A stretch of 43,017 nt of DNA from Enterobacteria phage phiJLA23: sequence record NC_047740.1. One strand, given 5' to 3'. A model generated the notes under the pieces. The model saw only the letters and a program-made list of their open reading frames with translations. It was not told the origin of the DNA and searched no databases. The position numbers and the translations under genes were made by a program. Within the stretch, counting starts at the first letter, position 1; every line of letters starts with the position of its first letter. Of this stretch, positions 42 to 42,720 are shown one piece after another.

Positions 42-470
42 TCCTTAACANGAAATCAAACATAGTATTTTAATAAAACACAACAACATAGCTATAGAGA
101 GTAGTTACAAGATATACATAGTAATATATATAATAATAATAATACTCTAAACCCTTNTTATATAAGGATTTATAAATGTAACTAATGCGTATCTTCGCGT
201 AAAAAGCGTATACAATTTTCAGCGGATGAGATTGTATACATCGAGTTACATCGGTTACGCGTATATAAAATAGCACGATTTGCTAAAGACTACAGCAGAA
301 GCCTTTGCTATAGTTACTCCATCGAAACGAAACATACTGACTAAGGAATACAAAATGACTAACTTCATCAAATCAGCAATCATCGCAGCAGCAGCAATCA
401 TGACGGTAGGTTGTTCTTCTGGTCCGCGCCCTGACGGATGGTGTGCGACTCAGGCGGGTGATGTTTGCGT
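42..470. repeat. Contig wrap-around overlap, copy 1 (matches ~42305-42720)
   Basis: Near-identical ~430 bp at both contig ends; second copy is N-rich. Circular or permuted genome assembled with overlap, or a terminal repeat. Confidence 0.8.
268..332 (+). promoter_or_regulatory. Composite early promoter: palindrome TAGCA-N5-TGCTA (271-285), hairpin, -10-like TATAGT (309-314), leader CATCGAAACGAAA (320-332)
   Basis: Same ordered module recurs at 13 or more other intergenic sites; palindrome centre about 43 bp upstream of predicted start; RBS aagga and ATG at 355 follow. Confidence 0.5.
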
Positions 471-600
471 AGCTAAGTGGAAAGGTGGTGTTATTGTTGC
501 AGCTGGAGAGGTTGATATTCGTTATGCTGGCATTGAGTCAAAGGTTGGTGGAGGCTACGGCGGCTCAGTTGCAGATCACGGCTCAAAGGAGTGGAAATAA
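355..600 (+). CDS. Small lipoprotein, candidate Cor/Llp-like superinfection-exclusion protein
   Basis: RBS aagga 7 nt before ATG 355; signal peptide [20 protein letters not shown] with lipobox-like TVGC; stop overlaps next start (TAATG). Longest ORF begins at 280. Confidence 0.6.
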
Positions 601-7150: not shown

Positions 7151-7165
7151 TAGCAATTAGTGCTA
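7151..7165 (-). promoter_or_regulatory. Isolated copy of palindrome TAGCA-N5-TGCTA at the M/L junction
   Basis: ttagcaattagtgctattt; overlaps M-like stop codon and lies about 23 nt before L start; no -10/leader module. Possible operator. Confidence 0.4.
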
Positions 7166-15003: not shown

Positions 15004-15823
15004 TTATGCATCAAGCCTTACAACTTCTATACACAGGTCTTGATTGTCGCTCACAACATAACCGACTGTAAATAGATTTATTGTTACTCTCCACGCCGTT
15101 CCTGTTGTGGTTTCATAAAAGCTAAAAACATATGGCCTTATTCTTTGAAATTCACCAATGCCAGTAACCAATGCTGTTCCAGTTACGGAAGATGAAGATA
15201 TTGCTGTCCTTACTGTTGTATTGAAGTAGTTATCTGTATTATTGAAGCCCTCAATATTACCTCTTATGTTCCTGGCAGTGCTTCCCTCATCAATCCAGGC
15301 TCTAATGCTAAAAGCANTTGGNGAATCAAGCCTTATACCACCGAGNNCNCNCCNNTCNTCGCCTTGAGGACCTNGCGGCCCCGCAGGGCCTGCCGGACCA
15401 GTGTCGACCTTGNGGCCNTGCNGCACCAGCTNCGCCTGCGGGACCTGCTGGACCNTGCGGACCAACCGGACCTTGTGGACCTGCTTCACCTGAACCCCCT
15501 CCTTCATCACTTGCAAAATCACCTTTAGCCAGAGCTGAAATATAAGCGCCATCCTCGAAGTGAGCATTGCCAAACCTTTTCCAGCCCTGCGCTAGATATC
15601 GGTTAACCCTGTTAACTAGCCCCTGAATTGTGGTGTCGGATGTAACCATGAAGTCTTCAACGTTGTTTGTTGTTCCTTTCGCCATCTTCATGCCAAAGAG
15701 GGTGCCGCTTAGCATCTGCACATCACCATATGGCTGAAAGCCTGATGACATCATCACTTTTACGTTCCTGGCTAAGATTTCAGGTGAATTCCCTACTGCC
15801 ATAGCAATTTCTGTGTAAGCCAT
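15004..15823 (-). CDS. Structural protein with collagen-like Gly-X-Y repeats (ORF disrupted by N-run 15300-15500)
   Basis: RBS aggaga 5 nt before ATG 15823; translation contains GEAGPQGPVGPxGPAGPAG; two overlapping ORFs (15326-15823, 15004-15573) rejoin if the N-rich tract is corrected. Confidence 0.5.
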
Positions 15824-23395: not shown

Positions 23396-23466
23396 TTCCT
23401 CGTCTAATTTCGATAAAGTAATGGTAACGCATCCTTGCGATGGATGTTTAGCAATTTGTGCTATTT
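23396..23466 (-). promoter_or_regulatory. Composite early promoter (palindrome 23449-23463, hairpin, -10-like box, leader ATCGAAATTAGAC)
   Basis: Same ordered module as 268-332. Confidence 0.45.
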
Positions 23467-24369: not shown

Positions 24370-24432
24370 TTGTTGTTGATAGGGTAATCATAGCTGACTA
24401 CCCAATTTATTGTTTAGCAATTTGTGCTATAT
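24370..24432 (-). promoter_or_regulatory. Composite early promoter (palindrome 24415-24429, TATGATTAC, leader TATCAACAACAAA)
   Basis: Palindrome also encodes the last residues and stop of the upstream gene. Confidence 0.45.
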
Positions 24433-25477: not shown

Positions 25478-25630
25478 ATGCTAAAGCCATCTGACTTGAA
25501 CTATTACGATCTAGAAACCATAGCCAAGTACAGCGGTAAGGGTTGGCCTGTTGGTGACTACTTCAAAGAAGATTTGATTGAGAGCTTCAACATCGTCCAG
25601 AAGGCAATTGCAAAAGCAGCAAAGAAATAG
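25478..25630 (+). CDS. Hypothetical small protein (50 aa)
   Basis: ATG overlaps upstream stop (TAAATG); stop TAG lies in palindrome copy 25628-25642. Confidence 0.35.
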   Translation: MLKPSDLNYYDLETIAKYSGKGWPVGDYFKEDLIESFNIVQKAIAKAAKK

Positions 25631-25688
25631 CACGAATTGCTAAAGCCCTTCGGGGCTTTTATTGTATATTCATCTCATCGAAACGAAA
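25626..25688 (+). promoter_or_regulatory. Composite early promoter (palindrome 25628-25642, terminator hairpin gcccttcggggc + T-run, TATATT, leader CATCGAAACGAAA)
   Basis: Palindrome centre about 42 bp upstream of predicted start. Confidence 0.5.
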
Positions 25689-26255: not shown

Positions 26256-26312
26256 AATAGCACTTTTTGCTAATGACACTACCCGCTTCGGCGGGTATAT
26301 TTGTTTCCATCA
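26256..26312 (+). promoter_or_regulatory. Composite early promoter (palindrome 26258-26272, hairpin acccgcttcggcgggt, TATATT, leader CCATCAAGAAGACAAAC)
   Basis: Same module; starts 2 nt after upstream stop. Confidence 0.45.
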
Positions 26313-26455: not shown

Positions 26456-26517
26456 TGGCACTTTTTGCTAAAGACCTTAACAACAAAAATTGATATATTC
26501 TCTTCATCGAAACGAAA
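26454..26517 (+). promoter_or_regulatory. Composite early promoter (variant palindrome TGGCA-N5-TGCTA 26456-26470, TATATT 26494-26499, leader CATCGAAACGAAA 26505-26517)
   Basis: Same module, left arm one mismatch. Confidence 0.45.
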
Positions 26518-30931: not shown

Positions 30932-31000
30932 TCGTCTCTCGTTTCGATGAACACACTATACGCCATCCATGGCGATGTGTTTTAACAAAAAGTGCTATTT
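30932..31000 (-). promoter_or_regulatory. Composite early promoter (variant palindrome TAACA-N5-TGCTA 30983-30997, hairpin cgccatccatggcg, TATAGTGTG, leader CATCGAAACGAGAGACG)
   Basis: Same module; about 100-nt leader before the HTH gene. Confidence 0.45.
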
Positions 31001-31611: not shown

Positions 31612-31686
31612 TCTTAACCCTCTCATTTGCTGATGTAATTAATATAATCCATCCTTGTATTTTAGTTTTAACAAAAAGTGCTATTT
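31612..31686 (-). promoter_or_regulatory. Composite early promoter (variant palindrome 31669-31683, TATATTAATTAC, leader CATCAGCAAATGAGAG)
   Basis: Same module; palindrome overlaps upstream stop. Confidence 0.4.
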
Positions 31687-32504: not shown

Positions 32505-32568
32505 CTTCGTTTCGATGAAGTAACTATATCGCATCCTTGCGAAATCTCTTTAGCAATTCGTGCTATTT
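32505..32568 (-). promoter_or_regulatory. Composite early promoter (palindrome 32551-32565, hairpin atcgcaaggatgcgat, TATAGTTAC, leader CATCGAAACGAAG)
   Basis: Palindrome centre about 42 bp upstream of predicted start; also encodes ...STNC-stop of VRR-NUC gene. Confidence 0.5.
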
Positions 32569-32939
32569 GATAGATAATCTGTAATTGCCAACTTAAACAT
32601 TTCAAACCCATAACAGATTGCTGCGTAACCTCCTGTTTCTGATACCTTTTCCAGGAACTCCTTTTGCTCCTTTGAAACCTTGCTATCTGATTTTATTGCT
32701 CGCTTAAGCTCTATTGCGGCAAAGCCATTTGGTCCAATCAGTAGAATATCTGATACACCCTTAATTACTCCCTCCTGCTTGTCCTTCATTGCTGTGCCGA
32801 TAGACTTGAGACCTTCATTCTTCACGTGAAAAGCAAATATCTCTGGATGGTTGTGGCGAACCCAAGCTATTGAATTTATTTGGTGAACAACCTCTTTAGC
32901 CTTGTCCGTGCTTGTTTTGTCGTGAAAAACCTTAACCAT
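32550..32939 (-). CDS. VRR-NUC domain nuclease
   Basis: 129 aa with VRR-NUC-like motifs (GxPD-type SDILLIGPNG, AIELK); coupled to helicase gene (stop/start overlap at 32939). Confidence 0.65.
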   Translation of the reverse strand: MVKVFHDKTSTDKAKEVVHQINSIAWVRHNHPEIFAFHVKNEGLKSIGTAMKDKQEGVIKGVSDILLIGPNGFAAIELKRAIKSDSKVSKEQKEFLEKVSETGGYAAICYGFEMFKLAITDYLSNSTNC

Positions 32940-34882
32940 TAGAACTCCTTATTAGCAATATTATCGCCACCTTTAGCGGTCTTGCGGTGAGTTACCCTCT
33001 TAGGGGCATGGATGTACTGCGCATACTCCATAATCTTGCGAGCATTGCGATATGCAGCCATATATCGCTTAGCGTTCATGTCGACTACGTGACCTTTAAT
33101 TCCATTGTTCAACCAGAGCGTTTTACATACTCGATGGCCAGACTCTACAAAGAAAACCTCATGAGCTTTGAATGTCCCACCCATGCCATCATCAAGGATG
33201 TAGTTGTAGATGATTCCTGATTGGTTCTTTGTTAGCCCAACCTTAAAGTCAACAACATCAAACCAGTCGTTCTTGCGGTAATGTTTGCCGCTTAAGTTGA
33301 GATTTGGATCAAGCAAAGTGCAATCGCAACCCCTACAAATCTTAGCTGCAACGTCATTCTGAACTCCACAGCCTTTAACGATAACCTTTCCGGTTCGTGG
33401 GTCTTTCTGGTCTTCACATGTGCGACTAACCCAGAAATATTCGCAGCGATTATTATTCTCATCAATATGCATGCAACGTCGAGCAAAGAAGCTGTTCTCT
33501 GTTCCGCATACTGGACACTGCTTAGTCTCCTTGCCATTACTCTTTCGTAGCTGATATTGAGCCTGCTCAAGAATTGGATTGAAGTACAATGATGCCATAG
33601 AGTCCATCGTTCCTGCGAAGTCCAGTACCAAATGGTCATTCTTTACCATTCCTTTATCTTCATGGAGCTTCTTAAGCTTACGCATTCCTCGACCAAGTAG
33701 CTGAACCAGGAGCGTAAGGCTACCGATCTTACGCAGAATAACGCTTGTATCCCATGTAGGCACATTTACGCCAGTGGTTAGCGCCTGAACCTGAAAGCAA
33801 TATTTAATCTCCCCGCTAAAGCACTTATCAAGCAACTCCTTGCGCTGCTTCTCGCCAGTCTTTCCAGTTATAATGCAGAACTTTTCACCTTCAGGAAGGT
33901 AACTTGCGGCTTCGTGGCAATGGCGCTCACCTGCGCATGTTACCAGAACTCCATTCCTGTCTTTCGCGGCAAGCCATACTTTCTTCATTATCTCCGCTGT
34001 CATTGTTCCAGATGCCTGAATCTTTTTATCCATGGCTTCAAGCTGGGCTTTAGTGTAATCCTGAACACCATCTTCAGATGATGCATCAAACTCTGACAGG
34101 TCGTAACCAACGCCATCAGTAGCACCAAAGTTTGTCGGAACCACGGAACCGAACTCTACCAGGTAGTTTGTATCGATATTTGTGACCGTCTCACGCCAAA
34201 ATCCCAACTCCTTTTTGTTTTCAACAACTATTGGCGTAGTTCCACGGAAAGGAGAACCAGTCAGTCCAAAGATACGAAGATTCTTGCCATACTTAGCACG
34301 GCAGCGCTCCATTAAAGTCAGGATGATGACCGTATACTGGCTACGCCCCTTATCTGATGCCTGTTGCGCAGTCTCATTGTTATCAATTGCCTCCGCTATG
34401 TCCTGGTCATCAATATGGTGACACTCATCAATAGCAACTACCGCAGGACAGAAATCGCCAAGTGACTTCTTAAGCCCGCCAACTACTGTGCCCTCAGAGC
34501 CAACCACCACAGGGAAATAAGATGATTTTATTCCAAGCCCAGAGCAATAAATGGAGTTAGGAACCCCGTAATCAGAAATCTCAGAAGCATTCTGGCTAAC
34601 CAGCTCTGCCTGACGAGCAAGAACAAGCATAGGCAAGCCAAGCTCAGAGCAACGCTTAGCAACCATACCAAAAACCAGAGTCTTACCAGCAGAAACTGAA
34701 GCCATTGCGATAAATGGATGCTCATAGCGACTAATGCGCTTTGCAATCTCATTGTACATAACACACTGATAGCTATACGGAACCATACAGTTAGAAGAGG
34801 TGAATTTAGTTTGAATCTCTTTAATCTTATCTTCGCCCAATTCTTCAATCTGTTTTTGTATTGTTTTCAATCGGTTTTCCAT
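32939..34882 (-). CDS. SF2 (DExH-box) DNA helicase with C-terminal zinc ribbon
   Basis: Walker A ASVSAGKT, DExH box VAIDECHH, Cys cluster CPVCG...CMHIDENNNRCEYFW; start at ATG 34882 (MENRLK) by promoter spacing and RBS. Confidence 0.8.
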   Translation of the reverse strand: MENRLKTIQKQIEELGEDKIKEIQTKFTSSNCMVPYSYQCVMYNEIAKRISRYEHPFIAMASVSAGKTLVFGMVAKRCSELGLPMLVLARQAELVSQNASEISDYGVPNSIYCSGLGIKSSYFPVVVGSEGTVVGGLKKSLGDFCPAVVAIDECHHIDDQDIAEAIDNNETAQQASDKGRSQYTVIILTLMERCRAKYGKNLRIFGLTGSPFRGTTPIVVENKKELGFWRETVTNIDTNYLVEFGSVVPTNFGATDGVGYDLSEFDASSEDGVQDYTKAQLEAMDKKIQASGTMTAEIMKKVWLAAKDRNGVLVTCAGERHCHEAASYLPEGEKFCIITGKTGEKQRKELLDKCFSGEIKYCFQVQALTTGVNVPTWDTSVILRKIGSLTLLVQLLGRGMRKLKKLHEDKGMVKNDHLVLDFAGTMDSMASLYFNPILEQAQYQLRKSNGKETKQCPVCGTENSFFARRCMHIDENNNRCEYFWVSRTCEDQKDPRTGKVIVKGCGVQNDVAAKICRGCDCTLLDPNLNLSGKHYRKNDWFDVVDFKVGLTKNQSGIIYNYILDDGMGGTFKAHEVFFVESGHRVCKTLWLNNGIKGHVVDMNAKRYMAAYRNARKIMEYAQYIHAPKRVTHRKTAKGGDNIANKEF

Positions 34883-34896
34883 AATATCAAATGCCT

Positions 34897-34966
34897 TTAA
34901 TGTTCGTTCGATTGACGATATAATAACAGCCATATAAACCAATGTTTAACAAAAAGTGCTATTGAG
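34897..34966 (-). promoter_or_regulatory. Composite early promoter for helicase operon (variant palindrome TAACA-N5-TGCTA 34947-34961, leader CAATCGAACGAAC); in divergent region abutting HTH gene RBS
   Basis: Palindrome ends 6 nt before the RBS gaggtgag of the plus-strand HTH gene while at about -42 of the helicase promoter. Confidence 0.5.
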
Positions 34967-34974
34967 GTGAGAAA

Positions 34975-35448
34975 ATGGATTCAATTGACAAGCGTACTCT
35001 TAATGGTAACAACGGAACAATTCGCACAGAAGACAAGAAGCCGCGTAAGCGTCCATCAGGTTACTATGTACTAAAGGATGAAGTGAGAGCGGGATTAAGG
35101 GCGCGCCTTGAGATTGTATTGGACTTCTACGGCAGCAAGGCCAATCTAGCTAAGCAGCTAAAGGTTACGCGCCAGGCTGTAGAAGAATGGTGTAAGCGGG
35201 GAATGATTTCAGCTCGCGGCGCACAGCTTGCGCATAATCGATATAAGCGAACTGGCGAGGGGTTCAGGGCTACATTCTGCCGACCTGATTTACAGTTCGA
35301 CGGTAACGGCAAGCCTCTAACACTGCGATGCAAGAAGCGTCAGATGCTTCGAGTTGTTACAGAAGCTGAGTTAGCAACCAAGCCGCAGCGTAAATCATGG
35401 CGAAAGGTTAAGAAAGAAAGAGAAGAAGCACGAAAAGCTAAAGAGTAA
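34975..35448 (+). CDS. Putative HTH transcriptional regulator (Cro/YdaS-like)
   Basis: HTH-like segment SKANLAKQLKVTRQAVEEWCKRG; basic C-terminus; RBS gaggtgag; terminator 35454-35485 follows. Confidence 0.6.
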   Translation: MDSIDKRTLNGNNGTIRTEDKKPRKRPSGYYVLKDEVRAGLRARLEIVLDFYGSKANLAKQLKVTRQAVEEWCKRGMISARGAQLAHNRYKRTGEGFRATFCRPDLQFDGNGKPLTLRCKKRQMLRVVTEAELATKPQRKSWRKVKKEREEARKAKE

Positions 35449-35453
35449 AAATT

Positions 35454-35485
35454 AAGGTTGTGCCATAATCGGTACAACCTTTTTA
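35454..35485 (+). terminator. Rho-independent terminator (stem aaggttgt/acaacctt + T-run)
   Basis: 8-bp stem, T5 tract, after HTH gene stop. Confidence 0.6.
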
Positions 35486-35500
35486 TTGGATTAAATAAAA

Positions 35501-36424
35501 ATGAATTACGACAAGAATGAAGTAATACCTAAAATGGCTGGATTGTGGAAATCATTTTATGCAAAGGAGCTTGGTTGGAATGATAGACACCTTAGCAAGA
35601 AGCACGGGCCGTGCCCTTATTGCTTTGGTACTGACAGATTCAGGTTTACAGACGAAATAGGAAGCGAAAAAGGTAATGGGGCCGCAGTTTGCTCTAAGTG
35701 CGGCAGTGACTCAGGAATAGGCTGGGTTATGAAATGTTCCGGCCTTAGATTTGTGGAAGCTATAAATTTACTTGGCGACTGGCTTAATTTGACTCCCGTC
35801 GAAATCATAGTGAAGGCAAACAAAGCAGCGAGCCGAGTTCAGAGATATAACTTTGGCGCTCAGGCATCCATTGAATCAATCGAGAAGGTAATCTCTCGCA
35901 CCAAGTCTGTAGAAATGACACAGCTTACGAGATTTGAAGCAATTATTACTGAACGGGAATACAAAATAGGAATAAAGGGGTCTGGAGAAGAAATTATAGC
36001 CGAGCAATGCTTTATGGTTTACGAGGATGGTTTATCAGATGAGCCTTGTAACGTAAAGTTTATAGATGAAGAGGGTAATGAGTCATATCTCGCAAAAGAC
36101 TACACTCGCGGCTCGGTTGTTCCGGTAAGTAAATGTAGTGATGGCGCTATCTACCTCACTGTTGGCTGGATTAACGCACTACATGTATCGGCATGCACAA
36201 AAAGGACAACTTACGACTGCCTAACTCACCACAACTTAGAAATGGTTGCTTATGAACTCAGGAATAAAGAGTGCAGGATAGCTTGCTTAGCTGATGAAAA
36301 GGAGTCGCTTTATGTTGCTGATGATAGAGGTCTAAAAGTCGTAATACCTAAAGGTGGCAATTTCAAGATGGGGCTTGAAAGAAGGTTATATAACCCGCAA
36401 GATCTGATAGATAAGCATTCATAG
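35501..36424 (+). CDS. Putative DNA primase (zinc-binding N-terminus)
   Basis: Cys motif CPYCFG...CSKCGS typical of primase zinc-binding domains; adjacent to helicase/regulator. Confidence 0.5.
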   Translation: MNYDKNEVIPKMAGLWKSFYAKELGWNDRHLSKKHGPCPYCFGTDRFRFTDEIGSEKGNGAAVCSKCGSDSGIGWVMKCSGLRFVEAINLLGDWLNLTPVEIIVKANKAASRVQRYNFGAQASIESIEKVISRTKSVEMTQLTRFEAIITEREYKIGIKGSGEEIIAEQCFMVYEDGLSDEPCNVKFIDEEGNESYLAKDYTRGSVVPVSKCSDGAIYLTVGWINALHVSACTKRTTYDCLTHHNLEMVAYELRNKECRIACLADEKESLYVADDRGLKVVIPKGGNFKMGLERRLYNPQDLIDKHS

Positions 36425-36429
36425 CAATC

Positions 36430-36473
36430 ACCCTCTTCGGAGGGTTTTTTATTGCATTTAATCTGATACAATA
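36430..36473 (+). promoter_or_regulatory. Terminator hairpin (ccctcttcggaggg 36431-36444, T6) followed by TACAAT -10-like box (36467-36472) upstream of lateral tail fibre gene
   Basis: Same hairpin-then-TACAAT layout as upstream of small terminase. Confidence 0.5.
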
Positions 36474-36502
36474 GGTTTCATCTATCAAATAGGAGAAATA
36501 AC

Positions 36503-39220
36503 ATGGCAATTTATGACGCTGGAACTGCATCGCTTGCAGCTGACGGAACTGTAACTGGTGTTGGCACCACGTGGAGGCAACCACTAACGCTAATCCGAGT
36601 TGGCGCAACAATGATTTTTAACACCACCCCGACAAGCATTGTTACTATCGCTGAGATTTTAAGCGATACAGAGATTCGTGTATTCAATGATAAAGGTTTT
36701 ACTGCGCCAGCTGGGACTCAGTACTCAATCCTTGCTCATGACGGAATTACTGTCCAAGGTCTTGCTCAGGACGTTGCTGAGACACTTCGTTATTATCAGT
36801 CCCGTGAAACAGAGGTTGCAGCGGCAGTTGATGCTTTTAATCAATTTGATTCTGATTCTTTCCAGCAAAGCGTAAATAATGTCAACATGCAATCTCAGCA
36901 AGTTGCTGTTGATGCTGCTCAAGTTTCTTCTGACAAAGATCAGGTATCTTCTGATAGGCAGTTAGCTGAAAGTAGCGCTAACTCGGCTTCCTCTTCAGCT
37001 ACAATAGCAAGCTCTGCTGCGGCTTCTGTGTCATCTGCTCTTGTAGTTGATTTCTCAAATGGTGGAGAAATAAACTCAAGAACTCAGCCTGCAATTTACT
37101 TTAATGACAATCATGTTTCGGTTTATTACTGGTCTGGTAGCGTTCCAAAATCCATACCACAAAACTCATCACCACAGTCTACAGGTGGTATTGGAGTTGG
37201 TTTTTGGATTCAACAGGATTACACAAGAAGGTTTGAATCAGTATCAGCAATGACAAACTCTGCCAGAATTTATGACTTAGAGGTTGTCTATTGTGATTCT
37301 TACATTGGTGGTCTTGGTTATGGTGGTGGGTTCTTTGTTTGTAAGCCGGAGTCATCTTTATCATATGGATTATCTTCAGGATTGGTTTTTGAATCAAGTA
37401 CAGGTTATTACTGGGAAAGAATCTGTAGCGGGGAGCTGTCGCCTTGCGAACTTGGGGCCATTAAGTCATCGACATCAGACTCAACGACACAGATACAGCA
37501 AATCCTAGACTCCGGGCTGGCATTAAAGCTTGATAGCGACTACATGGCATCAAACCTGGTAATGAGAAATAAATCTTGCTCTATAATTGGTTTTGGCAAG
37601 CACAAGTCAAGAATAACTCAGCTTAGTTCATCAATTGGCTCTTTAATTGAGGTTTCTGATTCTTGCTCGCTCATTCATATTGAAGGTATTGCTCTTTACG
37701 GCACTGGAGCCCAGCAAGACACGGCGTTTACTGATGGTACTGCTGGGATTTACATCCCTACGCCGACTGGGTTATCAACCAATTACCCATTCAACACTGG
37801 TGCTGACCCTAGGAGGGACTTAACGATAAGAAACACTCACATTGCTGGGTTTGATGTTTACGGAATTTTCGTTGCTGCTGGTAACTACTCTCCTGTTCTT
37901 GATGATGTTCTTATTCAGCACATAAAAAAAGACGGATTGATTAACGAAACAACAGACTTCACATGGAATAACATACAGGTAAACACCTGTGGAAGAAATT
38001 GTCTAATACTTAGGAATGCCGGAAACTGTAGGATTGTTGGCGGTAAGTTTATTTGGTCGGGTTGGTCGGCTTATAATGAGCTTGATGATGCTTATGGCAT
38101 CCTGATTGATAACTGCCAAAACATCACCATGTCAGCTATAGAGGCGCAGGATTGCGGTGGTGACGGTGTTAGAATTGTAAACTCTAGAAATGTGGTATTT
38201 AATGGATTAAATAGTAACAGGAACAGCATAAACTCAAACTACAGAGATTATAACGTTTCGTTTTCAAATAGCTCTGTAAGAATCTATGGTTTTGTTGGGC
38301 TTAACTATGTATCTAACAATGGCGATGGAAGGCCAACTTCCGCTGGCAACTTCAGATTCCTTGACTCAAGATCTGATGTTGTGATCGATGGGGTTGTTGA
38401 ATCTGGTTACTTTGGCCCAAATTTCTCAGGGGACACTAACTATGTTGCTGAGTATTCAGGAAACCTGAAGATAAACGGACTGATAGACAAAAGGAAGACA
38501 AGAATTAAGCCAGCAAACGACACTTCAGCTTTTGATGGGGTCTCTAATACACCAGTATTCGCCGCAGCGGCATCATCAGTTGGGCAGCAATATTGGCTAA
38601 GGCTTTCACAGGCAAATAAAGATAAGATTATATGCACTGGATTTGACCCGTCACTAGGTTTCACCGCTACATGCAATATATCGCCGACCATAACTGTTGC
38701 TGAAGACTTTAACCTTATAGCTATAGGGACTGGTTTTGGAGTTAATAGTAATGCTCTTTACTTGCAGTATAACGTGATGGCATCAGGAGAACACAGTGTC
38801 TCATTGTTAATATCAGCATCAGGTGAAACAAGAGTTTTATCAGGTGTGTTGCCAGTCTCATCAAGAATGGTCAATGGTGGTACTTACAATATTGCTCTTG
38901 GTTTTGATGTATCTGGTAAGGTTTGGTGGAGCATCTTAAACCTGAATACTGGATTTAGAGTTAGAAGGTCATTTGATTCTCAGTATATAGATATTGATGT
39001 CAGACCTATACTAACAACAGCTGGTAACTATGTAACCATGTATTCAGGTCAAGGCGCTGGTGATGTAGCTTGCTCTGGATATGGCTTTGGTGTTTACGTT
39101 GGCAGCTATTCAGATGAGTCTGATTATTGCGCTTCAAGATACTATTCGCTTAAAGGTGGTGTTGATTTGACAAAACAATCAGTATTTTTGAGTTTGAATG
39201 GTGATGTAACGTCACAATAA
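36503..39220 (+). CDS. Lateral tail fibre / tailspike-like protein (predicted beta-helix, possible glycan-binding or depolymerase domain)
   Basis: 905 aa; conserved-looking N-terminal anchor, Ser/Ala-rich linker, long Asn/Gly/Ser-rich repetitive region typical of beta-helix fibres; RBS aggag. Confidence 0.7.
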   Translation: MAIYDAGTASLAADGTVTGVGTTWRQPLTLIRVGATMIFNTTPTSIVTIAEILSDTEIRVFNDKGFTAPAGTQYSILAHDGITVQGLAQDVAETLRYYQSRETEVAAAVDAFNQFDSDSFQQSVNNVNMQSQQVAVDAAQVSSDKDQVSSDRQLAESSANSASSSATIASSAAASVSSALVVDFSNGGEINSRTQPAIYFNDNHVSVYYWSGSVPKSIPQNSSPQSTGGIGVGFWIQQDYTRRFESVSAMTNSARIYDLEVVYCDSYIGGLGYGGGFFVCKPESSLSYGLSSGLVFESSTGYYWERICSGELSPCELGAIKSSTSDSTTQIQQILDSGLALKLDSDYMASNLVMRNKSCSIIGFGKHKSRITQLSSSIGSLIEVSDSCSLIHIEGIALYGTGAQQDTAFTDGTAGIYIPTPTGLSTNYPFNTGADPRRDLTIRNTHIAGFDVYGIFVAAGNYSPVLDDVLIQHIKKDGLINETTDFTWNNIQVNTCGRNCLILRNAGNCRIVGGKFIWSGWSAYNELDDAYGILIDNCQNITMSAIEAQDCGGDGVRIVNSRNVVFNGLNSNRNSINSNYRDYNVSFSNSSVRIYGFVGLNYVSNNGDGRPTSAGNFRFLDSRSDVVIDGVVESGYFGPNFSGDTNYVAEYSGNLKINGLIDKRKTRIKPANDTSAFDGVSNTPVFAAAASSVGQQYWLRLSQANKDKIICTGFDPSLGFTATCNISPTITVAEDFNLIAIGTGFGVNSNALYLQYNVMASGEHSVSLLISASGETRVLSGVLPVSSRMVNGGTYNIALGFDVSGKVWWSILNLNTGFRVRRSFDSQYIDIDVRPILTTAGNYVTMYSGQGAGDVACSGYGFGVYVGSYSDESDYCASRYYSLKGGVDLTKQSVFLSLNGDVTSQ

Positions 39221-39246
39221 AAAAGCCCCGAAAGGGGCTTTATCTT
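39221..39246. terminator. Bidirectional terminator (hairpin gccccgaaaggggc 39227-39240)
   Basis: Identical hairpin to 1571-1584; A-run upstream, T-rich downstream, between convergent genes. Confidence 0.7.
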
Positions 39247-39251
39247 TTGCA

Positions 39252-39680
39252 TTAAAACGGAATATCATCTTCATCACTAAATCGGCTTTGTTGCTGCGGC
39301 TGCTGTCTCTGTTGCTGTTGAGCTTGTTGTCGCTGCTGCTGCTGTTCTGATTCACCTCCTCGCTGACTAAACATCAATCGAGGATTCTGCAACTCAAGCG
39401 TAATATATGTCTTGCCATTATGTTCGCGCTCATTAACCGCTAATGAATCGCCGCTCACAGAGATAACTTTTCCTTCCTGAAATGCTTCGTCATACCAGCT
39501 AATTTGCGCCTCGCTAGCAAAGAAGGTAGCTCGATAATTACTATACTTACGCTCTCCATCTCGTGTTTTATAAGATTCGCTCATTTCGATAGCGTACATC
39601 TTCCAGTTACCCTTGGCGTTCTGACCATCTTTACTGAACAGCGTCTTACCAACCATATCTAAGAATTTGTCCCAATTCAT
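39252..39680 (-). CDS. Single-stranded DNA-binding protein (SSB)
   Basis: OB-fold-like N-terminus, Gln-rich linker, canonical acidic C-terminal tail ending DEDDIPF. Confidence 0.8.
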   Translation of the reverse strand: MNWDKFLDMVGKTLFSKDGQNAKGNWKMYAIEMSESYKTRDGERKYSNYRATFFASEAQISWYDEAFQEGKVISVSGDSLAVNEREHNGKTYITLELQNPRLMFSQRGGESEQQQQRQQAQQQQRQQPQQQSRFSDEDDIPF

Positions 39681-39721
39681 TTCATATCTCGTTTGATTTT
39701 GGGGCCGAAGCCCCGTTTAGT

Positions 39722-40369
39722 TTAGAACTGCTCGATTGATTGTGATTCTACTACTTCATTCGTTGCGTTTGCAACTTTTTTAGCGACTTCCTTTGGCTTA
39801 GCTGGGTTGAAGCCACTTGCGGAAGCCATTTTGATCTCTGCTTGTTTATCTATTATCGCTTTCTCTACTATACCCCACGTTGCCGTGTCAGCTTGTGATT
39901 TGCATGATTTGTAGATTTCGATAAGCTCTTCTCGAGTTTCTGCCTTCTCAATATCGCGCTTCCAGTCCTTGACGCTCTTAACTGCCATCTGCGCATCATC
40001 GTCAGACTGACTAATTCCCAAAGCCGCCGCTAGTGAGTAACGCCGAGCGTATGTAAATGCAGATCCTACTCCTTGCGGGTCTTTCTTAACTATTGGCATA
40101 ATCATGAAGAAGCTAACCCACTCGCCAGAAACGTGATAGAGAGTCGTCTCTACGTTAAGATTGTCAGTAGTTGATGTTTCTAACATGCTCTGCATAATCA
40201 TTAAGTCGTTATCATCAAGTGCTGGGATTACAGCCTCCAGCATGGAATCAAGTGTTGCGTATCTATTCTTTAGGTGACTGTTCTGCTTGTCTCTTGCCGC
40301 CTTCGCAAATCCTGTGCGAGCTTTAAATAGTGCCTGTAAAACTGTTTTGTTACTCTCTGAAGTCTTCAT
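39722..40369 (-). CDS. Erf-family single-strand annealing protein
   Basis: Motif GVGSAFTYARRYSLAAALGISQSDDD characteristic of the Erf family; adjacent to exonuclease and SSB. Confidence 0.7.
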   Translation of the reverse strand: MKTSESNKTVLQALFKARTGFAKAARDKQNSHLKNRYATLDSMLEAVIPALDDNDLMIMQSMLETSTTDNLNVETTLYHVSGEWVSFFMIMPIVKKDPQGVGSAFTYARRYSLAAALGISQSDDDAQMAVKSVKDWKRDIEKAETREELIEIYKSCKSQADTATWGIVEKAIIDKQAEIKMASASGFNPAKPKEVAKKVANATNEVVESQSIEQF

Positions 40370-40380
40370 TTCTATCTCTC

Positions 40381-40445
40381 TTTGTTGTCGATGAGGTAAC
40401 TATACCCCATCAATTTAATACCGTTTTAGCTATTCGTGCTATCTT
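40381..40445 (-). promoter_or_regulatory. Composite early promoter (variant palindrome TAGCA-N5-AGCTA 40427-40441, TATAGTTAC, leader CATCGACAACAAA)
   Basis: Same module; palindrome encodes ...STNS-stop of exonuclease gene. Confidence 0.45.
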
Positions 40446-41394
40446 CGTACTTCTTCATCTCATACTCAGGAACTTGCAGTTCCATCTCTGTTTCGCCAAA
40501 TCCGTAACCAGGCCAAATATCAAGTTTCTTGCATTGCTTGTATGTGGATAGGGCGCTCATGTATTGCAATCTACCAACCTTTAAGTGCTCTTTTGTTATC
40601 GTGTAGCACATTGGAAGGAATGGGCTTTTCTTTTCCTGGCAAAGAAGCTGAACAACAACTCGACGCTTCTCATTAAAGGCGCGAACAAACAAATCATGCT
40701 GAAGCGCCATTTTTAGCAAGTAACCATGCTTGAAGGCCAATCTCCCAAATCCAGATGGAGATGCGTCGCTAGTCGTCTTGTAGTCACGGATATAAACTAC
40801 ATCATCAACGACATCGACATGGTCAAGACGAACCTTAACGCCGCACTCGTTAATCTCACCGAAGATTGATAACTCTCGCTGAGCGGTTTTACTGTTCACT
40901 ATCGCATTGTATGCAGGAATGCCACACAGCACCTCTCGCATCGCATGTACTGTGTCAAAGTCTTTAGCTGATACAATCTCGCGACCGTTCGCTTTAACCT
41001 CGTTAGAGCGCTGAATATCCCACCATACGTTAAGTGATTCACCGCTCAGCGCCAGAATCTCCATTAATTCTGGATAATCCTTACCAGATGTTCCAGCAAT
41101 ACCCATCGACTTCAACCGAGTTGCCAAAGCAGTCTTGCTAGTAATCAGATCATCAAACTCTTCTTGCGCTGGCTGGCGATAGTAAGTCGCATCGAATACA
41201 GAGTTTTCAAGAATAACCGTGTGGGCTAATGTACCGAACTTTAAAGCCTTATTGCTATCATCATGCTCTGCAAACTTATAAGCAGCGGGGCAAGTTGAGA
41301 AGATGTGAGCCAGACCAGAGCCAGACACATGGTCTGACTCCTTGTGGTAGGCTTCGTTGGTTAACTCGTCGCTAGTGTAAACCTTGAAGCTCAT
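40426..41394 (-). CDS. PD-(D/E)xK-family recombination exonuclease (lambda Exo/YqaJ-like candidate)
   Basis: 322 aa with DxK-containing motif VVYIRDYKTT; adjacent to Erf and SSB. Confidence 0.6.
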   Translation of the reverse strand: MSFKVYTSDELTNEAYHKESDHVSGSGLAHIFSTCPAAYKFAEHDDSNKALKFGTLAHTVILENSVFDATYYRQPAQEEFDDLITSKTALATRLKSMGIAGTSGKDYPELMEILALSGESLNVWWDIQRSNEVKANGREIVSAKDFDTVHAMREVLCGIPAYNAIVNSKTAQRELSIFGEINECGVKVRLDHVDVVDDVVYIRDYKTTSDASPSGFGRLAFKHGYLLKMALQHDLFVRAFNEKRRVVVQLLCQEKKSPFLPMCYTITKEHLKVGRLQYMSALSTYKQCKKLDIWPGYGFGETEMELQVPEYEMKKYEDSTNS

Positions 41395-41397
41395 AAT

Positions 41398-41592
41398 TTA
41401 TTCCTTCACCTTAATAATCTTCATTACTGAACCAAGCTCCTCATCTGTCACGTGGGCGTATTCAATAGCTTCCTGCTTTGTATCAAATCTTGCCGCCTCT
41501 GATTTATTGCTTGTGTAACCTGAGCCATCTACACAGTAGTAACATGTGCCGAAAATAGGATTGTTTCGCTCTTGAATAATGAAGTATGCCAT
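41398..41592 (-). CDS. Hypothetical protein (64 aa, CxxC)
   Basis: ORF coupled to exonuclease gene; leader ACACAAACAAAGAGAGATATAGAA. Confidence 0.5.
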   Translation of the reverse strand: MAYFIIQERNNPIFGTCYYCVDGSGYTSNKSEAARFDTKQEAIEYAHVTDEELGSVMKIIKVKE

Positions 41593-41665: not shown

Positions 41666-42049
41666 TTATTTCAACTTAAGAATCTCGCTATTCTTATCAA
41701 CTAGATTAGCAATAAGCTCATCTTTAGCCTTTAACTTTTCGCAGGCAACCTCAAGCTGAGCCTGATATTTGTAAACCACCTCTTGAGAGTCATGGTAACG
41801 ATTTGACTCGAACTTAACATCGAAGTATTGCTCATCAAGTTCCGCAGGATTTCCACACTTATCCATGCTCTTAAACATGAACTTCTCAATCGCGTAATAG
41901 TTATCCTCAGCTCTGTGCTGCGCGGCTCTATTTAGCATCTCCCTTATNNCCCTTANTACGTGGTCATGTCGCTTTCCCGTGATCTCGGCAATTTCAAGGC
42001 TACTCATGGTNACGTTTTCATCAATATTAATCAGATTCATATCTATCAT
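41666..42049 (-). CDS. Rha-family phage regulatory protein
   Basis: Motif MSSLEIAEITGKRHDHVxRxIREML typical of Rha N-terminal domain; start taken at ATG 42049 (ORF track starts 42079 on GTG); Ns at 41945-42010. Confidence 0.65.
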   Translation of the reverse strand: MIDMNLINIDENXTMSSLEIAEITGKRHDHVXRXIREMLNRAAQHRAEDNYYAIEKFMFKSMDKCGNPAELDEQYFDVKFESNRYHDSQEVVYKYQAQLEVACEKLKAKDELIANLVDKNSEILKLK

Positions 42050-42185: not shown

Positions 42186-42304
42186 TGTATATAGCTGTAA
42201 AACTCACATAAATACGCTTTGATGCTCTGTACGCCGCATGAATGCTGAATGTAACCCTTGTAACCAATGTATCCACCAAATTTGCACCCTATCTATATAT
42301 ATAT

Positions 42305-42720
42305 GCATTTTCTCCTTAACAGGAAATCAAACATAGTATTTTAGTAAAACACAACAACATAGCTATAGAGAGTAGTTACAAGATATACATAGTAATATAT
42401 ATAATAATAATAATACTCTAAACCCTTATTATATAAGGATTTATAAATGTAACTAATGCGTATCTTCGCGTAAAAAGCGTATACAATTTTCAGCGGATGA
42501 GATTGTATACATCGAGTTACATCGGTTACGCGTATATAAAATAGCNNGTTTTNTAAAAAACANNACAGNAGNCTTTTCCTTTANTACCNCCATCAAAACA
42601 AAANATACTGACTAAGGAATAAAAAATGAANAACTTCATAAAATCAGCAATCATCGCAGCAGCAGAACTNATGACGGTAGNTTGTTTCTGGTGNNCNCCC
42701 CCTTGACGGNTGGTGGGGGC
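42305..42720. repeat. Contig wrap-around overlap, copy 2 (low-quality duplicate of ~42-470)
   Basis: Matches window start including lipoprotein 5' end; many Ns. Confidence 0.8.

Follow-up and report, generated by a model that had tools for sequence, protein, structure and literature searches.

The stretch of DNA considered here, termed the window throughout, comprises the 43,017 nucleotides (nt) of sequence record NC_047740.1 from Enterobacteria phage phiJLA23, and one of its loci raises the question of why a lateral tail fibre gene should be found amid genes of replication and recombination, and of what the encoded protein does. The gene encodes the lateral tail fibre of a T1-like phage, a product that in this lineage is predicted to be a trimeric tailspike and not a thin fibre. 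Very probably, this protein constitutes a virion-borne endoglycosidase directed against the O-antigen of Escherichia coli O157, an assignment in which attachment to the virion, trimerisation and catalysis are all inferred. Its place amid replication genes is not unusual but corresponds to the ordinary, published arrangement of the whole family. The gene and the parts of its product, the latter described with reference to the tailspike TSP2 of phage CBA120 and to the predicted local distance difference test (pLDDT) of AlphaFold2, are:

36503-39220, plus strand: lateral tail fibre or tailspike gene (905 amino acids, ATG start, no ambiguous bases)
36503-36856, plus strand: N-terminal anchor of Drexlerviridae lateral tail fibres, residues 1-118 (tblastn)
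36752-37033, plus strand: long alpha-helical neck of coiled-coil type, residues 84-177 (AlphaFold2 helices 84-100, 102-113 and 117-177)
37046-37213, plus strand: Tail_spike_N head domain (TSP1/Gp66 N-terminal, PF18668), residues 182-237 (Pfam)
37226-38422, plus strand: right-handed parallel beta-helix, predicted O157 O-antigen glycosidase domain, residues 242-640 (TSP2 homology, AlphaFold2, Foldseek)
38423-39217, plus strand: C-terminal beta-sandwich, residues 641-905 (TSP2 alignment to residue 895; strands 697-867, pLDDT 70-87)

The distal part of the protein carries the functional assignment. Residues 242-895 align with CBA120 TSP2 (PDB 5W6P/6W4Q) without large gaps (phmmer E 1.5e-174, ~47% identity), and an AlphaFold2 model of the monomer, built on 57 homologues, gives a pLDDT of ~90 for the beta-helix and of 70-87 for the C-terminal beta-sandwich. 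In a Foldseek comparison with the PDB, the nine best matches were TSP2 chains headed by 5W6P (E 2.4e-56, 44% identity, TM-score 0.65 normalised to the target), and the ranks below these nine were occupied by other tailspike depolymerases. The succession typical of TSP2, namely a right-handed parallel beta-helix followed by a C-terminal domain of the TSP2 type, was hence recovered. Because the Pfam Beta_helix profile (PF13229) scored under its cut-off (21.5 versus 25.9 bits), the beta-helix claim rests on PDB homology and the model. A sequence-only reading of the window had predicted a beta-helix of glycan-binding or depolymerase type, and the structure prediction returned this fold rather than its absence; the Asn/Gly/Ser-rich central region that it had invoked does exist, with these residues making up 31% of the beta-helix part, but this barely exceeds the 29% of the whole protein. 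Proximal to the beta-helix, the Tail_spike_N match is well above threshold (E 2.7e-13, 50.2 bits, cut-off 25) and modelled at a pLDDT of 83-88, and Ala, Ser and Gln account for 61% of residues 119-177 of the neck.

In CBA120, TSP2 confers O157 specificity and harbours its active site in the cleft between the subunits of the trimer; according to mutagenesis and halo assays, Asp506 and Asp571 constitute the acid/base pair, and Glu568/Tyr623 (and Arg594) form an alternative apparatus (PMC7506556). Each of these residues has a counterpart in the fibre protein:

37955-37957, plus strand: D485, aligned to TSP2 D506
38141-38143, plus strand: E547, aligned to TSP2 E568
38150-38152, plus strand: D550, aligned to TSP2 D571
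38219-38221, plus strand: R573, aligned to TSP2 R594
38306-38308, plus strand: Y602, aligned to TSP2 Y623

Both the acid/base pair and the alternative apparatus are accordingly present, and the five residues are invariant among 8 sequences from four phage groups, an alignment that took in CBA120 TSP2, the phiV10 tailspike, ST4, a Kuttervirus paralogue, an E. coli prophage tailspike and a Citrobacter protein. As in TSP2, we infer a homotrimer with an inter-subunit active site.

The O157 specificity is further indicated by the relatives of the phage. Over window positions 34900-41500, the DNA shares 99.9% identity with Escherichia phage C119 and ~99% with Rogue1, AHP42, AKS96, phiKP26 and JK06, of which C119, Rogue1, AHP42 and AKS96 are O157 phages, and by sequence the phage is to be assigned to the T1-like siphoviruses of the genus Rogunavirus (Drexlerviridae, Rogunavirinae). 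The majority of these near-identical relatives were isolated on E. coli O157:H7, with a few having other recorded hosts, and the fibre protein is 100% identical to the tail fiber protein of C119. Its receptor-binding part is present in 107 phage records, which encompass siphoviruses of the genus Rogunavirus, myoviruses of the genus Kuttervirus (for many of which a Salmonella host is recorded), the temperate podovirus phiV10, ST4 and an O157 typing phage. In BECP10 this part is 99.5% identical; BECP10 infects O157 only, its adsorption is periodate-sensitive and it forms no plaques on wzy and rfaJ O-antigen transposon mutants (PMC8402813). For UDF157lw the identity is 99.4%, and this phage forms halo plaques, the halo having been credited by the authors to another open reading frame (ORF) (PMC10838988). 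The homology of CBA120 orf211 to JK06 orf75, which is the fibre gene, and to phiV10 was noted in 2011 (PMC3184105), and a paper on tailspike modularity across E. coli O-serogroups makes no mention of Rogunavirus or Drexlerviridae (PMC10408124).

The proximal part of the protein, on the other hand, ties it to the lateral fibres of its own family. The profile phrog_4818, annotated as tail fiber protein, covers residues 1-902 of 905 (1486 bits), and several further 'tail fiber' PHROGs match residues 1 to ~180 (E 1e-27 to 1e-60). The conserved N-terminal anchor of ~120 residues that typifies Drexlerviridae lateral fibres is present, at identities of 53% (T1) and 60% ('lateral tail fiber protein' of AugustePiccard), and was found by tblastn in 835 phage records, nearly all of them Drexlerviridae genomes of 44-53 kb, with hosts among Escherichia, Klebsiella, Shigella, Salmonella and related genera. 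As a query for related loci, a single N-terminal peptide retrieved only 13 close relatives, and wider sampling was drawn from a phage collection. The full-length profile match and the widely shared anchor bear out the identity of a lateral tail fibre that had been proposed before. Anchor and neck also match residues 1-174 of the depolymerase Depo32/DpK2 (E 1e-35), which has been drawn bound to the phage particle via its N-terminal anchor (PMC10581125).

Several observations speak against a virion-borne endoglycosidase, and two alternative readings draw on them. With respect to catalysis, TSP2 Asn565, the ligand of a structural chloride situated beneath the active site, corresponds to Ser544 in the fibre protein, the sole difference noted. 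The beta-helix might then be inactive and the fibre bind the O157 O-antigen without cleaving it, given also that identity to TSP2 is just ~47% and that activity is predicted from homology; this is nevertheless very unlikely in view of the five catalytic residues, which are conserved and invariant across the homologues from four phage groups, and of the halos made by the related phage UDF157lw. With respect to attachment, the N-terminal 90 residues are poorly modelled (pLDDT 30-46), the homologous part of Depo32 is unresolved in cryo-electron microscopy maps (PMC10581125), and the virion proteomics published for Rogue1 and for the AHP24 group, which cover abundant bands only, report no protein of the size of the fibre, the 124-kDa 'tail fiber' listed there being gpJ (PMC4070988). 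The protein might be made early, like its neighbours, and freed at lysis as a soluble depolymerase without being a virion component, an idea with which its absence from these proteomics lists, the common orientation of its gene with the upstream regulator and primase genes and the resemblance of its promoter to the host sigma-70 extended -10 type would agree. It is hardly credible, however, since conservation of the anchor across 835 phages ahead of a varying remainder is the hallmark of a domain for virion attachment, Depo32 is drawn attached to the particle via the same anchor, and terminators separate the fibre gene from the primase transcript; moreover, in phage TLS a 78-kDa structural protein has been linked to Gp55, which resembles the L-shaped fibre of T5 (PMC11447400) and is a putative homologue of the fibre protein.

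For the virion-borne endoglycosidase, the following mechanism can be proposed. The N-terminal ~118 residues would anchor the protein to the tail tip, followed by the helical neck and the small head domain, and the beta-helix would bind and cleave the E. coli O157 O-antigen in the inter-subunit cleft, as its homology to CBA120 TSP2 suggests. Cleavage would be accomplished by D485 and D550, with E547, Y602 and R573 as a putative back-up, as in TSP2. This would let the virion pass through the O-antigen layer and the central gpJ fibre reach the terminal receptor, which would explain the strict O157 host range of the phage group.

The distal part appears to be exchangeable as a unit, which was located by blastn breakpoints:

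36800-39215, plus strand: variable cassette, delimited by the conserved 5' end of the fibre gene on one side and by the terminator and SSB gene on the other

In comparisons with Sf12, phiEB49 and EC3a, DNA similarity ends at 36799-36819 and resumes at 39212-39255. The reverse pattern is met in phage e4/1c, where the block 36486-39578 is 96% identical, the flanks are 83% identical and the primase gene is unalignable. Among 120 homologues of the protein, the N-terminal similarity ends at residues 175-199 in 22, at 225-249 in 42, i.e. just past the Tail_spike_N head domain, and at 250-274 in 16, and another 6 share the C-terminal part only. A gene conserved at its 5' end alone and variable in the remainder is likewise characteristic of Drexlerviridae lateral fibres, and everything after codon ~100 is probably exchanged horizontally as a host-range cassette. 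The mosaic breakpoints, the e4/1c block and the occurrence of the receptor-binding part in 107 phage records all argue for such a cassette, which the sequence-only reading had suspected; its functional interpretation as a whole, a beta-helix depolymerase within a host-range cassette, is supported by homology and modelling.

Concerning the position of the gene, the ORF and its neighbours were verified as previously described, with the fibre gene on the plus strand between the primase gene and convergent recombination genes:

32939-34942, minus strand: helicase, divergent, upstream (homology)
34975-35448, plus strand: helix-turn-helix (HTH) regulator of 157 amino acids (homology)
35501-36424, plus strand: primase (primase zinc ribbon and phrog_510 matches)
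39252-39680, minus strand: SSB, convergent with the fibre gene
39722-40369, minus strand: Erf, convergent with the fibre gene
40426-41394, minus strand: PD-(D/E)XK exonuclease VIII, convergent with the fibre gene

A total of 18 loci from across the Drexlerviridae were compared by locating homologous helicase, regulator, primase, SSB, Erf and exonuclease genes along with the fibre anchor. In 17 of these loci, among them T1 (Tunavirinae) and EC3a (Braunvirinae), the order is helicase (minus), regulator, primase and fibre (plus), then SSB, Erf and exonuclease (minus), two of the 17 being contigs that end ahead of the recombination genes. The sole exception is a Webervirus with an inverted recombination block, in which the fibre gene abuts the tail module. 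The lateral fibre locus of the family, lying between primase/helicase and recombination genes, is thus encountered here, too, and the BASEL study describes it as flanked by syntenic conserved recombination and primase/helicase genes, with the fibre gene conserved at its far 5' end only (PMC8594841, S1C Fig legend). As a separate observation, in the Webervirus Klebsiella phage Sanco (L004, 1193-10351) exonuclease, Erf and SSB form a block whose orientation is opposite to that in T1 and Rogunavirus, so that the fibre/depolymerase gene lies next to the genes downstream of gpJ and converges with them.

The distance of ~30 kb from the tail module that had been emphasised earlier is found only in the linear coordinates of the window, where it amounts to 31.5 kb leftwards, whereas on the circle the end of the fibre gene lies ~4.6 kb from the gpJ gene (5.5 kb in C119). 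The window ends overlap, with 42304-42715 repeating 33-443 at 89% identity and both matching the same C119 segment, and they are adjacent in C119; therefore, the window appears to hold an entire genome of ~42.3 kb, assembled as a circle and cut at an arbitrary point, with a poor-quality overlapping tail, and the 30-kb separation is an artefact of linearisation. Circularly permuted genomes have been reported for this phage group, in agreement with this overlap (PMC4070988). The final ~300 nt of the window are rich in N and of low quality (230 N in the entire window), and the last 300 nt found no match in phage databases. That the fibre gene was displaced into the early/replication region in this phage alone, as its start 31.5 kb from gpJ and its replication and recombination neighbours might suggest, has next to no probability and is already refuted by the comparative data, namely by the order kept in T1 and the other loci of the 17 and described in PMC8594841, by the true gpJ distance of ~4.6-5.5 kb and by the direct contact with the tail module in Webervirus.

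The fibre gene is bordered by the following signals:

36430-36451, plus strand: primase gene terminator, rho-independent (ACCCTC/GAGGGT stem with a TTCG loop, then a T run)
36464-36472, plus strand: TG-extended -10 promoter-like element TGATACAAT (no recognisable -35; putative function)
36491-36495, plus strand: Shine-Dalgarno AGGAG, 7 nt ahead of the ATG (direct sequence reading)
39222-39241, either strand: AAAGCCCCGAAAGGGGCTTT, rho-independent terminator for both directions, between the converging genes for fibre and SSB

The GC hairpin ACCCTCTTCGGAGGGT at 36430-36445 is followed by a T run; its equivalents in AHP24, T1 and EC3a carry a terminator annotation, and hairpin plus T run recur in 18 of 18 related loci. 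The terminator AAAGCCCCGAAAGGGGCTTT is annotated on both strands in AHP24 and EC3a, and the fibre gene would thus be insulated by terminators on both sides. TACAAT, preceded by TG, stands at 36467-36472, and the whole element TGATACAAT lies ~18 nt past the hairpin stem, just beyond the T run. TGnTAnnnT occupies the same place in all 18 loci, and in an alignment of 9 divergent Drexlerviridae leaders T, G, T and the final T are invariant within variable surroundings. A contrary result, to be added to those weighed above, is that a generic sigma-70 promoter scan of 34800-39800 gave 8 sites (11.3 expected), among which the fibre promoter does not figure because a -35 is missing; nor does the window show enrichment of the 9-mer TGNTANAAT (10 found versus 8.9 expected), so that support for the promoter derives from conservation across genomes. 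Of the hairpin plus TACAAT promoter ascribed to the gene at first, both components are present and TACAAT is conserved, but the hairpin is the primase terminator and no part of a promoter. It is plausible from the conserved leader that the fibre gene has its own TG-extended -10 promoter, from which it is probably transcribed.

A different promoter-like arrangement was observed elsewhere in the window, where 12 copies of a directional unit each precede a gene. The unit consists of aaaTAGCACnnnTTG(C/T)TAAA, 21-23 nt that often contain a small GC hairpin, TATA(G/T)T, tCATCGAAACGAA, a ribosome-binding site and ATG; its palindrome core yields 13 matches versus 2.2 expected in the window.

271-285, 25628-25642, 26258-26272 and 26456-26470, plus strand: 21-nt repeat units
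7151-7165, 23449-23463, 24415-24429 and 30983-30997, minus strand: 21-nt repeat units
31669-31683, 32551-32565, 34947-34961 and 40427-40441, minus strand: 21-nt repeat units

The repeat corresponds to the 21-nt direct repeat of TLS, said to occur also in T1, Rtp and Rogue1, the function of which is listed as an open question (PMC11447400). Its 22-nt spacing to the -10-like hexamer places the palindrome centre near -42 of a promoter devoid of a -35, a position like that of a class II activator. In most other Drexlerviridae, one inverted copy resides in the fibre leader, 6-7 nt past TGnTACAAT and roughly at +2 to +16, as exemplified by five of the sampled loci:

L005 4960-4976, minus strand: inverted copy
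L008 5960-5976, minus strand: inverted copy
L010 5958-5974, minus strand: inverted copy
L012 5959-5975, minus strand: inverted copy
L015 5961-5977, minus strand: inverted copy

This copy is absent from the fibre leader of the window (36473-36502) and from those of C119, AHP24, AHS24, phiKP26 and Sf12; e4/1c, with a fibre gene 96% identical to that of the window at the DNA level, possesses it. Both the 22-nt spacing with its centre near -42 and the lack of the inverted leader copy in the lineage of the window may be new. An interpretation of the inverted repeat in the leaders of relatives as an antisense promoter was rejected, there being no TATAnT at 22-nt spacing on that strand.

In the window, the fibre gene alone forms an isolated unit between terminators, has a TG-extended -10 and at the same time lacks the 21-nt repeat (aaATAGCACnnnTTGnTAAAA). 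That its regulation differs from that of all other genes of the genome is a speculative and rather unlikely proposal. A protein bound at the inverted copy of the relatives, just after the fibre -10, would block transcription; should a phage regulator, e.g. the 157-residue HTH protein encoded at 34975-35448, bind the repeat, the fibre gene would be switched opposite to the repeat-driven genes, and, if this is true, the Rogue1/C119 lineage would have lost the control of its fibre gene by the repeat. Apart from the fibre gene, the 'lipoprotein' ORF at 280-600 (plus strand), here as in the C119 annotation, starts with a TTG inside a repeat/promoter unit (271-331); translation more probably begins at the ATG found ~75 nt beyond the repeat, and the annotation looks over-extended.

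A few differences were observed against C119, with which the whole window is collinear except for a few indels. The HNH endonuclease gene of C119, located between Erf and SSB (~530 bp), is absent at 39638-39655, and the Rha-type anti-repressor carries an in-frame internal deletion of 318 bp (window 41927-41930), leaving 137 instead of 243 amino acids. At 15004-15823 (minus strand), the homologue of C119 gp03 is interrupted, with 56 bp in place of 683 bp, which leaves two overlapping ORFs of 165 and 189 amino acids in different frames; this may be either a real deletion or an assembly error. In C119, gp03 comprises 481 amino acids, is annotated as 'tail fiber protein' and is located in the head module; judged by size, it may be the 52.7-kDa virion band of Rogue1.

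Locus architecture, TSP2 homology and O-antigen dependence have all been published, and the feature as such is already known. Its relevance lies in the fibre gene as the likely determinant of the strict O157 specificity of Rogunavirus phages developed for the biocontrol of E. coli O157:H7. Papers on this group have called the receptor-binding protein 'unknown' or credited the halo to another ORF (PMC8402813, PMC10838988), whereas the TSP2 homology and the intact catalytic residues clearly identify it. In addition, the gene provides a clean example of one receptor-binding module that moves between sipho-, myo- and podoviruses.

Among known systems, CBA120 TSP2 (ORF211; PDB 5W6P, 5W6S, 6W4Q) from a Kuttervirus myovirus is the closest in its distal part, with the same beta-helix, C-terminal domain, catalytic residues and O157 serogroup. 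Its N-terminal 240 residues are unrelated and plug into the branched TSP1-4 complex of the Ackermannviridae baseplate, whereas the fibre protein carries the Drexlerviridae fibre anchor and a helical neck. The Ackermannviridae N-terminal region that docks on TSP4/TSP1 was not recovered before residue ~240, where at most 7 of 50 residues per block are identical; hence, the fibre is a homologue of the catalytic module and not a member of the branched complex. With the lateral fibre locus of Drexlerviridae (T1 ORF26, BASEL Bas01-13 and, putatively, TLS Gp55), it shares the anchor, the location between primase and SSB and the leader layout of terminator, -10 and ribosome-binding site; the distal two thirds, by contrast, are an enzymatic beta-helix of TSP2 type here and fibre or other depolymerase modules in other members. 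Depo32/DpK2 (PDB 7VYV, 7VZ3, 7LZJ) from the Webervirus GH-K3, a depolymerase of K2 capsule, has the anchor and helical bundle (E 1e-35, residues 1-175) and the overall tailspike architecture (Foldseek E 1e-11 to 1e-12) in common with the fibre protein, but its beta-helix is just 11-12% identical and its target is the Klebsiella K2 capsule. The tail spike of phiV10 (PhiV10p25), a temperate Uetakevirus of E. coli O157:H7, finally, displays a receptor-binding part of 39% identity with the same catalytic residues, yet differs in its epsilon15-type N-terminus, its podovirus context and an adjacent receptor-modifying O-acetyltransferase.

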